In this document: positions 1 through 9,863 of the stretch, one piece after another
Position numbering within the stretch: position 1 is the first letter of the stretch
Layout of the letters: every line of letters begins with the position of its first letter
IMG/VR virus record: IMGVR_UViG_2711768003_000003
Direction: 5' to 3' (one strand)
From: a virus
Taxonomy: Duplodnaviria > Heunggongvirae > Uroviricota > Caudoviricetes
Length of the DNA: 9,863 bases
Made by a program: the position numbers and the translations under genes
The notes under the pieces: model-generated
What the model saw: the letters and a program-made list of their open reading frames with translations, nothing else
Told to the model about the DNA's origin: nothing
The model's database searches: none

Positions 1-50
1 CGCAGAGAATCGTAACGGGATACCAGATCAAGAGCCTGTCCAATGTGCAT

Positions 51-84
51 AAAAAAATCCGGAAACAAGTGAGCGTTTCCGGAT
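51..84 (-). terminator. Rho-independent terminator downstream of the portal gene
   Basis: Plus-strand 57-66 (atccggaaac) pairs perfectly with 75-84 (gtttccggat), a 10-bp stem with an 8-nt loop. On the minus strand the hairpin is followed by a U-run (plus-strand A-run at 51-57). It lies 34 nt past the portal stop (118-120). Confidence 0.6.
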
Positions 85-117
85 TCTTACACAGCCACTG
101 GATCGGTCAACTGATCC

Positions 118-1274
118 TTAACTGATCGGCATTACACCACCGGGACGCGGATTCATATCTTCCAGGTCGCGGCAGTCATTGGAAGAGTAAATTCCCCAGT
201 TGATCCCGGTGGCGTAGGCTTCAAAACGGGACTTCATATCCCCGCGCAGTAACGCCCCGGCGTTAAATTTGGCGTAATAAACGCCCTGCTTACTTTTTCG
301 TACCAGTCCGGTGTTGATCCGCTGTTCGATGCGGGTCAGATACGGCACCAGTGAATAGTTGATAAATCCCAGCCCCAGCTCTTCGATATTGTTGAAGGTG
401 GCGCGATCGGTGTTCTGCACCATGTGCAACGGCACCCGGAACAGACGACAGATTTCTTCCAGCTGAAACTTGCGGGTTTCCAGGAACTGACTGTCCTCGG
501 CGTTCAGCGCCATCGACTTCCAGTCCAGCCCCATTTCCAGAATCATCGGGCGGTGAGCATTGCCAAGCCCCGTGTGACACTCCTCAAAATCTTTCTTCAG
601 ACGCTCGTAAGCATCCGGCGTGAGCTTTTGTTCCGTACGCAACACACCGGATGTCACCGCACCATTACTAAACAACCTGGCACCGTGCTCCTCGGTTGCC
701 GCTGCCAGTGAAATGGCCTCACGCGCATACGCAATGGGATTCAGCCCGACAAGTCCATCCAGCGTCAGGGTGCGCACATGCCAGATTTCATTCTGGGTCA
801 ACACATCCACGGAACCATCCGGAAACGTCACCTGATAAACCGGCTGCCACTGGCTGTTCAGCTTCGGTTCCACACAGCCCGGATCTATCGGAAGAAGCTC
901 CACCACTTCTCCCAGTGCCTTTACCTTGTAGGCGTAAAAATTCCCCCGTAGACACAGGCAGACAATAACCAGCTCCCAGAATTCCTGCGGTGTCATGTAG
1001 CCATTAGGTTTTGCCGAAACCAACTTATGCAGTCGTTCATCCACCGCCCGTGTTTTCAGGGTACCGCTGATTTTGTAGAGACTGCAGGGCAGCATACCAA
1101 CAGACTCTGCCAGCACCCTGACGCAAGAATAGACCGCCGTCAGGCGCATGGCCCGCTGGCTACTGATCCGCTTTCCGGTATAGGTGTCGTATGACAGCCC
1201 GATAGCATCAGCAGTTCTGCTGGCGTGGTCACCGGCACATCGCTTTTTCGTTGAAATAATCCCGAAAAGAACAC
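118..1274 (-). CDS. Phage portal protein (HK97-type); 5' end probably frameshifted
   Basis: Long minus-strand ORF whose product carries a portal-like N-proximal motif (RLTAVYSCVRVLAESVGMLPCSLY) and sits directly after the terminase large subunit. The body frame has no ATG or GTG before codon 73 (ATG at 1149), only three TTG codons at 1357-1365 with no SD. A canonical GGAGG (1281-1285) followed by GTG (1272-1274) overlaps the stop of the upstream small ORF (TAGTG) but is in a different frame; that frame stops after 44 codons (TGA at 1140-1142). The span runs from the stop to the GTG and is not a multiple of 3. Confidence 0.8.
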
Positions 1275-1456
1275 TATTTACCTCCGCCGACAGACTGCCG
1301 TGTACGGTCGAGATATCGCGCCACCAGCCACGACCAGAACAGGCACAGCGCCCCGGCAACAACAAAACCCGCCGGGGGATAAATCAGCCAGGCACCATAC
1401 GCCAGCAAAAGCGCACCCAGCACGCCCACCAGAGGCGCGAGAATCAGCATGATCAT
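1274..1456 (-). CDS. Small hydrophobic protein with two predicted transmembrane helices (60 aa), function unknown
   Basis: ATG at 1454-1456 preceded by GAGGT 4 nt upstream, immediately after the TerL stop (TAA 1468-1470). Product [60 protein letters not shown] has two hydrophobic segments and a charged C-terminus. The portal-frame translation across the same DNA looks like out-of-frame junk ([12 protein letters not shown]). Confidence 0.5.
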
Positions 1457-1467
1457 AATTACCTCAG

Positions 1468-3201
1468 TTAAAGCGAGCGGATCCCGTAGGACTCAATGTG
1501 GTCAGACAGCGTGTCTTCTTTCTCGTACAGCATGGCTCTGCCAACCGCCATAATCAGCGCAACTGCACCATCGATTTTGTTTTCCGCCTGCTCTTTGACG
1601 GGTTTCACCACATCATCGTTACCCGGCATGTTTTTGCCGACCACGTTGCCGATACACCAGGTCATGATGGGATTGCCGTCATGATGAAAACGTCCCGATT
1701 CAATCGCTGCTTCCAGCTCTTTCATCGGATCGGACATATTGGTGAAGTTCTGGACGATAGTGACGGGATTCAGGTCTTCATCAGCAAGGTCATGTGACAA
1801 CCCGGTCGCCCCGAAGGGGTCGATGGGTGACTCACTGACCGGGCTGATTTTGTTCGCCGCTTTGGCCTCCTCGAGGATGTAGCGATAATCCACCTCCGCA
1901 CCATCGGTAACGGTCAGAACGCCCATTTCCACCCATTTCTGAAAGCGTTCGGCTGTCCGTCGATCTTCATTTTTCTCGACGCTGTACACCGTGTCATACG
2001 GTACCCAGAAACGCGGGGCCACACTGTAGTAATGCGTTTTACCGTCAATCTCGCGGGTATAAAGTCGCGCCATGCTGTTCATATCCAGCTTACGCGCCAG
2101 GTCAAAGGCCAGAATGCACGGCTGCCCCTCGAACTGCTCAAGGGTCAGTGATTTATCCTCGCAGCTCTGCCAGCTCACCAAGTTGAAATACGCCGAACGC
2201 GCCGACACCCAGATATTGAGGTGTTTTGTTTTAAAGACGTTTGCCAGACGGGCGTTATTTTTCGCACGCTGCTGCTGACTTAACAAAAATTCGCGATAAA
2301 CCGACACGCCAATATTTGGATTGGCTTTTTCCAGCACCTGCGGGCCGGTCCAGTCGTCACCTTCATCAACGGTATAGATGATCCCGAACAGTTCATCGTT
2401 AGGCACCGAGCCGTTGAGCATCTCGATGACTTCCCGCCGCTTGTCGTAGCACGGCCCCTCAATGTTGTACCCGGCGGTGGTGATGGCCCACATCAGTGGC
2501 TGACGTCGCGCCCCCATCCCGGTAAGCATTGTGGTATAAAGCGCATCGGTGGCATGCTCGTGATATTCATCAACCACGGCACAGTGGGGTGATGAACCAT
2601 CACCTGGGTTGCCGATCAGCGGTTCAAACCGCGCGCCATCCTCCGGACGGTTCATGTTTGAGGCGTTAACCTCAATCCCGAACGCTTCCGTCAGCATGGG
2701 TGTGCGTTTACACATCAGTCGCGCCGGGCGAAAGACTTCCCACGCCTGTTTCTCTGTCGTGGCACCGGAATACACTTCCGCGCCAAACTCGTTATCACAG
2801 GCAAAACAATACAGGGCAACACCGGCAGAGATTGCTGATTTGCCGTTCTTACGGGGGATTTCGGTGTACACCTCCCGGAAGCGGCGCAACCGGGTGCCTT
2901 TATTGACCCAGCCAAACGCACAGCAGATCACAAATAGCTGCCACGGCTCCAGCGTGATGGGCATCCGTTTGAATGCCCACTCCCCCTTGGTGTGCGGCAA
3001 CAGCTGAATAAATTTCGCGGCCCGTTCAGCCAGGTCCTTGTCGAAGCGGTAACGAAACGACTTACTTTTTTCCGCCATCAGGTCATCAAGATGGCGCTGG
3101 CAGGCCTGAATCACAAACTGGCAGGCAACAATCTTTCCGCGCACGACATCCCGGGCATACTGATTTGCAGCATTTACGTTGGGGTAAGATTTCCGGCTCA
3201 T
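1468..3201 (-). CDS. Terminase large subunit (ATPase plus nuclease)
   Basis: 577-aa ORF starting at ATG 3199-3201, overlapping the TerS stop (ATGA). Walker-A-like EIPRKNGKS and conserved acidic residues typical of terminase large subunits; position between TerS and portal. Confidence 0.93.
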
Positions 3202-3692
3202 GATTCGATAATTTTCAGAAACGGGTTAGTGGCTTTCTTCTGCCCCGCCAGGCCAATCAGACGCTGGCGGCTGCTGGGGTCGAGTCCGAGCATTGCCCCC
3301 GTGCTGCTCATCTCGGACTCCTGTTCTTTTTTGGCGGTCAGCTCCGGATTTTTGACCCTGCCGCCCATTGCACCGGTGATGGTGTTGCCCTGTATGGCAA
3401 TATTTTTCACGGCACGTCGCCAGAACTCATAGGCCACGCACCACCGCTCAAGTACCGCCAGGTCAGTCACGCACAGCAGGCCCTGACCGCAGAGTTCTTT
3501 GGTTGTCAGTTGCCACATGATCGTGGCGAGAGGGAGATCTTCTTCAGCGAACCACTCTGGTGGCTCAACACCTTTGATGGGCGTAAAAACAGGTTCATCT
3601 TTGTTCAGGGCTCGCTTGCCGGGGTTTCCGGCCAGCGCCTTGCGCGCCGTTGGCTTGGGGCGACGCCCGGAACGCCCCGCCGTTCCAGCCAT
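3198..3692 (-). CDS. Terminase small subunit (P27-type)
   Basis: ORF-track start at 3701 is GTG; the internal ATG at 3690-3692 has AGGAG 8 nt upstream. Basic N-terminus ([25 protein letters not shown]) is typical of P27-family small terminases. Stop overlaps the TerL start. Confidence 0.88.
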
Positions 3693-3813
3693 ATGCGGCA
3701 CTCCTGGTTAAATTTCATTTTTCGCGGGTATAAAAAAACGATGGGGCGGGCAGTCCGGAAGACGTCAGGTCACAGGGATTTGCCCCGCCCCTCCCTACAA
3801 GTGAGAATAATTA
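3693..3813. other. Candidate cos / packaging-initiation region between HNH endonuclease and TerS
   Basis: 121-nt intergenic region in the position where HK97-like cos phages carry cos. The GC-rich core GGGGCGGGCAGTCC resembles the lambda cohesive-end sequence GGGCGGCGACCT (recalled, not searched). Minus-strand flank ATGAAATTTAACCAGG resembles the lambda cosB-side ATGAAAATTTTCCGG. Confidence 0.4.
3743..3791. repeat. GC-rich imperfect inverted repeat (10 bp with a one-base bulge, 28-nt spacer) inside the cos-like region
   Basis: Plus-strand ggggcgggca (3743-3752) pairs with tgccccgcccc (3781-3791), with one unpaired c at 3786. The spacer contains the GACGTC palindrome. On the minus strand it is followed by a T7 run. 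Confidence 0.6.
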
Positions 3814-4164
3814 TCACCGGATTCGTTCGCGCGCTGTTTTCGCTTTATGGCAGGGCCAGCACAGACTCTGCAGGTTGCTGTCTGCGTCTGTTCCGCCATG
3901 CGCTTTCGGGATGATGTGGTCGACGGTTTTCGCCTCGCTCACCACACCGACACGCAGACACAACTGACACAGACCTTTATCGCGCTTCAGAATACGGGCA
4001 CGAATCACCGTCCATTTTGAGCCATAGCCACGCTGGTGGCGGCTCAGTCCGCGCTGGTGCTGCACCCAGCCTTCACCGCGATGTTTATCGCAGTAACCCG
4101 AACTGTCTGTGGTTGTACCTGCACATCCACGCTTACGGCAGGCACGTGGGATTAGTGATGGCAT
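3814..4164 (-). CDS. HNH endonuclease (terminase-associated, HK97 gp74-like role)
   Basis: 116-aa ORF, ATG 4162-4164 with GAGGT 4 nt upstream. Cys pairs (CRKRGC, CDKH, CQLC, CWPCH) and the HNH core VDHIIPKAHGGTDADSNLQSLCWPCH. Located immediately upstream of the cos-like region and TerS. Confidence 0.9.
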   Translation of the reverse strand: MPSLIPRACRKRGCAGTTTDSSGYCDKHRGEGWVQHQRGLSRHQRGYGSKWTVIRARILKRDKGLCQLCLRVGVVSEAKTVDHIIPKAHGGTDADSNLQSLCWPCHKAKTARERIR

Positions 4165-4206
4165 AAATACCTCATACCCTGCGAAATGTTTACCACGATA
4201 AAAAGG

Positions 4207-4671
4207 CTACTTAATGCACTGAGTGCGGATATACTCCTGTGCCCCTTCCAGTTGCATCTGCATCGTCATCAGCCGCTCTCTGAGGGTGAAATAATCCCGT
4301 TCAGCGGTGTCTGCCAGTCGGGGGCTGGTTGCATTATCCACGCCGGAGGCGGTGGTGGCTTCACGCACTGACTGACAGACTGCTTTGATGTGCAACCGAC
4401 GACGACCAGCGGCAACATCAGCGCGCAGAGTTTCATTTTCAGCTTTCGCATCAGCTAACTCCTTCGTGTATTTAGCATCGAGTGCATTAACATCACGCTG
4501 TCTCTGCTGCATGTCAGTAATGGTTGCGTTCGCCAGCTTCAGTTCTCTTGCGTTTTTGTCGCGCTGCTCTTTGTAGGTAATGGCGTTATCACGGTAATGA
4601 TTAACAGCCCATGACAGGCAGACGATGATGCAGATAACCAGAGCGGAGATAATCGCGGTGACTCTGCTCAT
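4207..4671 (-). CDS. Rz: Rz i-spanin (inner-membrane spanin subunit)
   Basis: ORF-track start at 4683 is GTG; the ATG at 4669-4671 overlaps the endolysin stop (ATGA). Product [34 protein letters not shown]... closely matches my recollection of lambda Rz: N-terminal TM segment plus coiled-coil periplasmic domain. Confidence 0.93.
4269..4451 (-). CDS. Rz1: Rz1 o-spanin (outer-membrane lipoprotein), embedded in Rz in the +1 frame
   Basis: ATG 4449-4451. Product has a lipobox (LVVVGC) followed by the proline-rich PPPPPAW, as in lambda Rz1; it lies entirely inside Rz. Confidence 0.9.
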
Positions 4672-5165
4672 TGCTGCCCCCACAAACAGACTTCACGCTC
4701 AATCTCACGACGGGTCATCAGCCCTTTCCATTGCTTACCGCCAGCATATGTCCAGCGACATAGCTGGTCACATGCGCCTTTGATATAGCCCTGGTTTATT
4801 TTGCGAAGAAGCGTCGATGTTCTGAAATTGCCAGCGCCCACGTTGTAAACGAACGAGTAAAGAGCGCCGCGCGTTGTTTCCGGTATATCGACTTTGATGT
4901 ACGGGTTAATTTGTCTGGCGACAGTGGCAAGGTCTTTATTCAGGAGGGCTTTGCATTCTGCTTCGGTATACGTTTTACCGAGCATGATGTCTTTTCCGGT
5001 GTGTCCGTGACATACAGTCCATACACCAATGATATCTTTGTATGGTATGTAGCTGACACCTTCCAGACCATCGTTACCACCTGGGCCAGTGATTAACACA
5101 GATGCTATAGCAACAGCCCCACCACCAATAGCAGCTGCAACAGCCTTGCGTAATGATGGCGACAT
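4668..5165 (-). CDS. R: SAR endolysin (phage-21-type lysozyme, T4-lysozyme fold)
   Basis: ATG 5163-5165 overlaps the holin stop (TAATG). Gly/Ala-rich N-terminal signal-anchor-release segment ([20 protein letters not shown]) then an E-x8-D-x5-T catalytic spacing ([16 protein letters not shown]). Matches my recollection of phage 21 R. Confidence 0.93.
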
Positions 5166-5336
5166 TATTCACCTCTCGCAGCCTTACGCTTGTCTTCTCT
5201 TATTTTGAAATACAGATTTGTCAGATAAGTCAGAAGCCCCAGAAGCAGACTTCCCAGCACACCAATCGCAGCCCACTGTGATGGACTGACCTGATCCAAC
5301 CACTGCAAAAACCAGTAGCCGGCACTGCCGGCGGAG
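5165..5336 (-). CDS. S: Class II holin / pinholin (phage-21 S-like), C-terminal 57 codons only; 5' end lies in the N-run
   Basis: Visible product ...[56 protein letters not shown] matches the two-TM S21 architecture. The ORF runs upstream into the N-run at 5337, so the start and about 14 codons are missing. Confidence 0.85.
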
Positions 5337-5690
5337 NNNNNNNNNNNNNNNNNNNNNNNNNNNNNNNNNNNNNNNNNNNNNNNNNNNNNNNNNNNNNNNN
5401 NNNNNNNNNNNNNNNNNNNNNNNNNNNNNNNNNNNNNNNNNNNNNNNNNNNNNNNNNNNNNNNNNNNNNNNNNNNNNNNNNNNNNNNNNNNNNNNNNNNN
5501 NNNNNNNNNNNNNNNNNNNNNNNNNNNNNNNNNNNNNNNNNNNNNNNNNNNNNNNNNNNNNNNNNNNNNNNNNNNNNNNNNNNNNNNNNNNNNNNNNNNN
5601 NNNNNNNNNNNNNNNNNNNNNNNNNNNNNNNNNNNNNNNNNNNNNNNNNNNNNNNNNNNNNNNNNNNNNNNNNNNNNNNNNNNNNNNNNN
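5337..5690. other. Assembly gap (354 N)
   Basis: Uninterrupted run of n. It removes the holin 5' end and whatever lies between the tRNA cluster and S. Confidence 0.99.
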
Positions 5691-8298: not shown

Positions 8299-9690
8299 TC
8301 AAAAGAAACGCTCCATCTTACTGCTGTCGGTACGTGTATTGCTGTATCTGCGCGGCTGGGGCTGCCGCATTGGGGTGGAAAGAACCTGTGCGCTTTCCTG
8401 GTCCACAGGCAGAAAATGTCCGTTATAAAAACGCCGGTAAATCGTCCCCAGAGAACCGTTACGTTGTTTCGTGATATTAATTTCTGCTATGCCTGTAGCC
8501 TGTGTATCCGGGTTGTACACTTCATCCCTGTAAAGCATCAGAATGATGTCTGCATCCGCCTCTATTTCTCCGGAATTTTTCAGGTCTGAGTTCATGGGAC
8601 GTTTATTGGGTCTGGACTCCACACCGCGGGAGAGCTGGCTCAGCGCAATCAACGGAAAACCACCGGATTTTGCCAGGCCTTTAAGCCCCTTTGAGATTTC
8701 ACCCACGGCAAGGTCATGACGCCCCGTGGTTCGGGTTTTTATCAGCCCGAGATAATCAACCACCACCAGCGCCGTTTCCGGATGTTTAATCAGATGGTGT
8801 TTCGTTGTTGCGCATATCTCATCAATGGTCAGGTTCGCCTGGTCCACCATCCAGATATTGCGCCCGGTCATCCGCCCCACCCCTTGTGAGAAACGCGCCC
8901 AGTCTTCATCTTCAAAGTGAGCCACAGATTTCAGGCGTGATACTGGCATCCCTCCAGCCGCAGACACCATACGTTCACCAATCTGGATGTTCGCCATCTC
9001 CATGGTGAACAGAAGCACACCATGCCCCTGCTCAGTCACCTTGTCGATGATGTCCAGCGCAAGTTCGGTTTTCCCCATCGAAGGACGGGCGGCAATGAAT
9101 ACCAGGTCTCCGGGCTCCATACCGCCTGTTTTTGCGTCCAGTTCATCAATACCGGTCATCAACGTCCTGGATTTCTCCAGCCCCTGATTCCGGCATTCAA
9201 CACGCTCAACCACTTCCGGAAGCACATCATCAATATGTACCGGCTGAATGACGCCCTTTCCTGTCGACAGTGTGACCATCATGTTCTGCGCATCCTTCAG
9301 GGCATCTTCAGCTGCTTCACAGGTATGCGCATCACGTAATTTCTGCAGCGCCTCATTCAGTGTTTTTTCTGCATCGCGCAGTGCGGCATTGCGCCGCAAC
9401 GCTGCAACATAGTGCTCCAGTGAAGACTTCACCCAGGTTTTACGCCCGGTATCAGTAATCACCGGGGCAAGTTCCGGCATCTCATTACACAACAGCACGG
9501 GGTCAATCACTCCTGAAACACGGGCCTGTCTGCAGATGCCTGTGTAGATATCCCGATACGCTCGTACAGAAAAAATGTCCGCCGGTAGTGTGATCAGAAT
9601 ATCCATCACTTCATGATCTGCCCCACGCAGAAAGAATGCGCCAATGACAGCGCCTTCCAGGTCATCATTACGCCAGACTGGTGTTGTCAT
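8299..9690 (-). CDS. DnaB-family replicative helicase
   Basis: RecA-like core with Walker A (ARPSMGKT), Walker B (VVVDYLGLI) and downstream DnaB-like blocks (LSQLSRGVESRPNKRPMNSDLKNSGEIEADADIILMLYRDEVY, KQRNGSLGT). The ORF-track start at 9831 is GTG with a junk-like extension; the ATG at 9688-9690 (MTTPVWRNDDLEGAVIG) has GGTG upstream and is preferred. Confidence 0.9.
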   Translation of the reverse strand: MTTPVWRNDDLEGAVIGAFFLRGADHEVMDILITLPADIFSVRAYRDIYTGICRQARVSGVIDPVLLCNEMPELAPVITDTGRKTWVKSSLEHYVAALRRNAALRDAEKTLNEALQKLRDAHTCEAAEDALKDAQNMMVTLSTGKGVIQPVHIDDVLPEVVERVECRNQGLEKSRTLMTGIDELDAKTGGMEPGDLVFIAARPSMGKTELALDIIDKVTEQGHGVLLFTMEMANIQIGERMVSAAGGMPVSRLKSVAHFEDEDWARFSQGVGRMTGRNIWMVDQANLTIDEICATTKHHLIKHPETALVVVDYLGLIKTRTTGRHDLAVGEISKGLKGLAKSGGFPLIALSQLSRGVESRPNKRPMNSDLKNSGEIEADADIILMLYRDEVYNPDTQATGIAEINITKQRNGSLGTIYRRFYNGHFLPVDQESAQVLSTPMRQPQPRRYSNTRTDSSKMERFF

Positions 9691-9863
9691 GCAGCCACAC
9701 CTCTGATACAAGAACGGTAGCTGGGCCAGTTGAACGACAACCAGTTGCGCCCCCCGTCTGTGATCCTGTCGGCAATGCGGGGGCTGATGAACGCTGGATT
9801 TGCCCCTATATTTCCAGACACCTGTTATCACTTAACCCATTACTGGCTTGCTGCCGTAGATAT

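Follow-up and report, generated by a model that had tools for sequence, protein, structure and literature searches.

The window, that is, the whole stretch of 9,863 nucleotides analysed here, can be assigned by its sequence to the chromosome of Shigella sonnei. Ten complete S. sonnei chromosomes (L004–L013) match it with 99.96–100% identity, and when the proteins of the window were looked up by exact sequence, the sources named them Shigella sonnei. The locus is a lambdoid prophage remnant of about 10 kb, related to phiP27, ST64B and SfII, with an HK97-type head module and bounded by insertion sequences. All genes of the region lie on the minus strand, in the order IS3-family element, dnaB, rusA, Q, holin, lysozyme, Rz, HNH, TerS, TerL, ymfR and portal'::IS4. 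The TerS, TerL, HNH and lysis genes are still intact. The large terminase gene (1468–3201, 577 aa, Pfam TerL_ATPase and TerL_nuclease) lies upstream of the ymfR-like gene in a common late operon, and the identical TerL protein recurs on 1000 contigs or more. In intact relatives, namely phiP27 and E. coli A36, the gene immediately 3' of the portal gene encodes the protease. No prohead protease, capsid or tail gene was found within 10 kb past the portal gene in the ten complete chromosomes. Virion-essential genes are absent from the remnant, which makes it a defective prophage.

Several features of the remnant outside the portal region were also recorded. The edge of the remnant opposite to IS4, at about 9806–9863, is formed by the terminal part of an IS3-family element that immediately precedes the dnaB-type helicase gene of the phage (1–1037 of L004). 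This helicase gene encodes 463 aa, and the mechanically called open reading frame at 8299–9831 (510 aa) is too long. A scaffold gap of 354 N occupies positions 5337–5690 of the window, where complete S. sonnei genomes hold 661 bp (5153–5813 of L004); these include a 98-aa open reading frame and the beginning of the gene for the holin. In one of the complete chromosomes (L009, CP044191.1), the equivalent of window 4240–5136 carries more than 70 clustered substitutions, which are confined to the lysis cassette, and the remnant is otherwise identical. These substitutions probably arose by recombination with the lysis genes of another lambdoid prophage.

The portal gene is preceded by a ymfR-like gene (1274–1456, minus strand), which encodes a 60-aa membrane protein and ends with TAG at 1276–1274. 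An identical protein is recorded as 'protein YmfR [Shigella sonnei]', and phiP27, E. coli A36, ST64B and the e14 element of E. coli K-12 each have an annotated ymfR homolog in the equivalent place. G1274 is shared by this TAG and by a GTG at 1274–1272, the ancestral start codon of the portal gene. A GGAGG Shine-Dalgarno motif (1281–1285, minus strand) precedes the GTG with a 6-nt spacer, and the surrounding sequence GGAGGTAAATAGTG is kept in all 95 intact homolog loci. The frame opened by the GTG (1140–1274, minus strand) is a remnant of the true portal N-terminus. It has 44 codons and stops at TGA 1142–1140; its residues 1–21 equal the homolog N-terminus with one substitution (A13V), and past that point it is out of frame. 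The preliminary description of this DNA had reported the overlapping GTG, the GGAGG 6 nt before it and the early TGA, and all three, like its other statements on the sequence, were confirmed.

The body of the portal gene (135–1149, minus strand) is out of frame with this start. Its 343-aa open reading frame covers positions 2–321 of the 321 positions of the Pfam Phage_portal profile (PF04860, E = 1.7e-107), which places it in the HK97 family of portal proteins. The long portal frame spans 118–1365 on the minus strand, and the match to the profile begins only at the methionine of MRLTAV. Gene callers place the portal start at this internal ATG (1149–1147), which is codon 73 of the long frame. 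Before it, the only start-type codons of the frame are three TTGs at 1365–1357. It had been noted earlier that the frame has no ATG or GTG until codon 73 and that its early codons look like junk; consistently, the first ~50 codons match no portal. Close relatives have one uninterrupted frame of 413 codons from the homolog start to the native stop. The window has no such frame, because the GTG frame ends after 44 codons and IS4 sequence has taken the place of the native C-terminus.

Intact relatives of the gene are abundant. Prophages of 1384 complete E. coli genomes share 92–96% identity with the portal region, and phages phiP27, ST64B, SfI, SfII, SfIV and others are similarly close. When the window was aligned with the DNA of phiP27, E. 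coli A36 and ST64B, a single-base gap appeared between window positions 1213 and 1212 (minus strand), within the interval of about 1205–1220 that the preliminary description had predicted for the break. The window has CTG-CTGATGCT in place of the ancestral CTGGCTGATGCT, so that it is one G short next to position 1212. The ancestral CTGGCT (Leu-Ala) has become CTGCT through the loss of one G of a GG pair, adjoining G1212. We also considered whether the deletion and an adjacent G-to-T change were one complex event, and this was ruled out by the S. sonnei ancestral allele, CTGGCT. In S. sonnei the ancestral codon was GCT, which encodes Ala just as GCG does in other phages, and the loss of a single G is therefore sufficient.

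The N-termini of the homologs span both frames of the window, as shown by phiP27, E. coli A36, ST64B, 95 intact IMG/VR loci and the HK97 portal structure 8cez; this comparison had been proposed as a check of the frame break. The annotated portal genes have 413–414 codons. In phiP27 and E. coli A36 they begin where the ymfR homolog stops, and in ST64B one codon earlier. Among the 95 intact IMG/VR loci, the GTG follows GGAGG in every case, and the frame runs for 413 codons in 93. For codons 1–43, these loci comprise 27 different alleles, whose variable sites are distributed 4:1:14 over the three codon positions, a pattern indicating that the region is coding in the GTG frame. With the structure 8cez, the alignment begins at residue 17, before the MRLTAV methionine is reached (phiP27 homolog match, E = 1.5e-53). 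Homologs starting at the upstream TTGs or at the MRLTAV methionine would have spoken against a frame break; both were sought and neither was found. A native start at TTG 1365–1357 or at the MRLTAV ATG was ruled out, since intact homologs use the coupled GTG and the codon-position variation agrees with it. The 415-aa product of a TTG start was not present in a collection of 15 billion proteins searched by exact sequence.

The 3' end of the portal gene is damaged as well. Positions 1–134 (minus strand) are the terminal 134 bp of IS4 (TAATGCCGATCAGTTAAGG...), with 96–97% identity to annotated E. coli IS4 copies. The homology to portals ends at window position 135, so that the IS4 junction lies at 134/135. 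The window itself ends inside IS4, and in complete genomes the IS4 transposase gene comes next. The protein of the window ends with ...NPRPGG followed by VMPIS and a stop, and this tail from VMPIS on is encoded by IS4 (118–134, minus strand). It replaces the last ~33 residues of intact portals, which run on with DVYLTPMNMTT... Past IS4, the ten complete chromosomes continue with chromosomal genes, either bamE-recN-nadK-grpE or raiA-pheA-tyrA-aroF. That the genes beyond IS4 differ between S. sonnei strains suggests an IS-mediated rearrangement at the site.

To describe how the two lesions are distributed, we compared the loci across the site of the missing base. In contigs of IMG/VR and GTDB, a degenerate pattern across it matched 121 times, and 119 of these loci carried the intact allele of 52 nt. 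The break is thus no product of chance. The other two loci (L101 and L125) carried an allele of 51 nt that is identical to that of the window and comes with the IS4 junction sequence of the window; the deletion was found in none of the 119 IS4-free loci. In S. sonnei, a 201-mer containing the deletion is base-for-base identical in all ten complete chromosomes, which come from independent projects. Counted from ATG 1149, the 343-aa product bears the name 'portal protein [Shigella sonnei]' and occurs on 1000 contigs or more, some of them complete chromosomes. It is found in 1695 index blocks, 46 of which have contigs longer than 1 Mb, and all of these 46 represent the deleted allele.

The intact start also exists in S. 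sonnei. The protein was rebuilt with the G restored and looked up by exact sequence, and it was found as a 385-aa 'portal protein [Shigella sonnei]' with the tail VMPIS (P0046, 19 contigs). A 378-aa form of it, truncated by contig ends, is on 14 contigs (P0047). The fused N-terminus that had been predicted for a restored frame, MFFSGLFQRKSDVPVTTPAEL-ADAIGLSYDTYTGKRISSQRAMRLTAV, thus occurs exactly in other S. sonnei assemblies. Ten loci (L135–L144), from about 10 independent samples of several projects, have CTGGCTGATGCT where the window has CTGCTGATGCT. The intact-start samples include ERR025742/54/56/65, ERR1810436, SRR28511568, GCA_001252355.1, GCA_001252575.1, GCA_001253095.1 and GCA_900487965.1, and L135 is GCA_001253095.1, CXDF01000101.1. 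The loci are otherwise 99.5–99.96% identical to the window (at least 99.9% in 8 of the 10), their sole difference in the deletion region maps to window position 1212, and their IS4 junction is identical to that at 134/135 of the window. About 1695 index blocks carry the deleted allele and 31 the intact one, and these are rough frequencies because retrieval of loci through exact protein matches favours each allele that is looked up.

Two of the intact-start loci, L135 and L137, share a linked SNP at window position 2181 in TerL, and a single mismatch in L140–L144 is consistent with the same SNP. L135 and L137 also show a block of 16 differing columns at window 4488–4503 in Rz, where the product has 149 aa versus 154 aa. 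The SNP and the Rz block together support a distinct lineage for the intact-start haplotype. The contig of L135 has the same late module from lysis to portal'::IS4, and its positions 1–5400 hold a different early region with NinB, NinE, antirepressor genes, NinH and a Q of the PF03589 type. Either this contig is a mosaic recombinant, or short reads were misassembled across lysis genes that are shared. Two paralogous portal copies per genome were considered too, and were unsupported; no contig with the intact-start product exceeded 15 kb.

The G is present in the phage outgroups, which makes the deletion the derived state, and because intact-start S. sonnei carry the same IS4 junction, the IS4 truncation most probably came before the frameshift. 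By parsimony with the phage outgroups, we infer that IS4 inserted first and the G was deleted later, within S. sonnei. A minority lineage that had regained the G by back-insertion would give the same pattern, but this is unlikely without selection. The opposite order, which was implicit in the preliminary description, would mean that a functional prophage was killed by the frameshift in the first place, with the IS4 insertion and the loss of the structural genes following afterwards. Both lesions are indeed present in the window. However, the intact-start loci combine the restored frame with the identical IS4 junction and a product ending in VMPIS, so a frameshift-first history would need a precise re-insertion of the G in L135–L144. 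In addition, the deletion was never seen with an uninterrupted portal 3' end (0 of 119 IS4-free loci). We give this order of events hardly any probability. The missing base might instead be an indel introduced by sequencing or assembly into a draft whose true gene is in frame at its 5' end, which the preliminary description had offered as one of its two readings. The window is a scaffolded draft with an N gap, and its bases at 4787 and 4760 differ from all the other S. sonnei loci compared (L004, L009, L135 and L137); these two positions, in the lysozyme/Rz region, are strain-specific SNPs or draft errors. But the same deletion in ten complete chromosomes from independent projects and its product on at least 1000 contigs do not fit such an error. 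The deletion also sits in a GG pair and not in a long homopolymer, and the alternative allele belongs to a separate haplotype with the SNP at 2181 in L135 and L137. An artefact is extremely improbable on these grounds, and this reading was not borne out. Judged from the assemblies, the deletion is a real, inherited mutation in nearly all sequenced S. sonnei. The second reading, an inactivating frameshift in a defective prophage, was supported, with one correction: the frameshift is real and the prophage is defective, but the frameshift was not the inactivating event, as IS4 would have come earlier.

A further possibility is that the frame break is bypassed, by a -1 slip of the ribosome or by termination at the TGA and reinitiation at ATG 1149–1147, and that the portal-like protein is still used by the host. 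A -1 shift is indeed what would restore the frame, and the GTG frame offers sites for the slip of a single codon: A AAA (codon 10) and, directly past the deletion, G GGC (codon 26). These sites are weak, and intact homologs have the same motifs, so that nothing has evolved for a bypass. No X XXY YYZ heptamer occurs in the zero frame between 1274 and 1140, and the two-frame layout is not conserved, as a single continuous frame is found in 119 of the 121 related loci and in a minority of S. sonnei. A programmed frameshift was ruled out on these two grounds. The ATG at 1149 lies only 4 nt upstream of the TGA at 1142–1140 (ATGCGCCTGA), a geometry compatible with termination-reinitiation, but no Shine-Dalgarno motif precedes it in the sequence. 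The intact TerS, TerL, HNH and lysis genes could be taken to favour a use by the host. Against it, a bypass product would still be without the C-terminal ~33 residues, in a remnant without capsid, protease and tail genes, and near-identical genomes with the intact allele show that the change is recent and no conserved feature. Such a bypass with a function for the host is thus very unlikely. A truncated product may nevertheless be made, for example by reinitiation at ATG 1149. It is extremely unlikely that a doubly truncated portal (residues 43 to ~380 plus VMPIS) is made and, together with TerS, TerL and HNH, acts for the host or for another phage. If it did, interference with the head assembly of a superinfecting HK97-like phage would be an example.

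We therefore consider it highly probable that the portal gene of the window is a decaying pseudogene that lost the G within S. sonnei after IS4 had truncated it in a prophage remnant, and that no assembly error is involved. Compared with its intact orthologs, the gene carries a real, inherited and disabling lesion, as a pseudogene does. In the functional ancestor, the portal would have been translated from the GTG coupled to the stop codon of ymfR. IS4 would then have inserted after the ...NPRPGG codons, and the head-protease, capsid and tail genes were presumably lost. The loss of one G from CTGGCT (codons 21–22) would have followed later, within S. sonnei. Ribosomes starting at the coupled GTG are now expected to end after 44 codons at TGA 1142–1140, which would leave the portal body without a proper start. 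The frameshift would thus represent neutral decay of an already dead gene. We infer that the locus lacks portal function.

The locus resembles several known systems. Like the window, phiP27, ST64B and SfI/SfII/SfIV have the order HNH-TerS-TerL-ymfR-portal with a GTG overlapping the ymfR stop. Around the start, their DNA is 92–96% identical to the window, and the portals share the same N-terminus through (D/E)AIGLSY. These portals are intact with 413 aa, whereas the window is one G short at codons 21–22 and has its last ~33 codons replaced by IS4. The e14 element of E. coli K-12 (L145, 3171–5923) is also a cryptic remnant, with an intact ymfR followed by a truncated portal, BeeE, that starts at the overlapping GTG; its adjoining terminase is degraded (aaaE pseudogene). 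BeeE has 157 aa and has kept the correct start. Its first ~135 residues are the portal N-terminus, which is cut by a deletion or fusion. In contrast, the S. sonnei copy has kept ~380 of the 413 codons but carries the frameshift at the 5' end and IS4 at the 3' end. S. sonnei genomes contain roughly 480–500 IS copies and 660–710 pseudogenes each (PMC12795559). The present locus is like other IS-driven S. sonnei pseudogenes, with IS on both sides and an IS4 interruption, and nothing about it is distinctive. The finding is ordinary, one more IS-linked pseudogene of S. sonnei.

For annotation, the region should be described as one portal pseudogene, frameshifted and truncated by IS4, rather than as a 343-aa 'portal protein', and the locus is no evidence for an inducible prophage. 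The G deletion is polymorphic in S. sonnei and can thereby be dated after the IS4 insertion. It is possibly a clean marker that sets a rare lineage of S. sonnei apart from those that dominate. The locus illustrates the continued decay of a dead gene in a species with IS expansion and pseudogene accumulation. Two records assigned to other bacteria contain the same region. A sequence of 1764 bp named 'Enterococcus phage Efm 3-10' (OR844959.1) is 96.9% identical to the enterobacterial ymfR-portal region. The scan of GTDB species representatives gave one locus only, on a 'Bacillota bacterium' MAG contig (L014, JAEWTL010000102.1) that has the same portal start. Both records are probably due to contamination or mis-binning.
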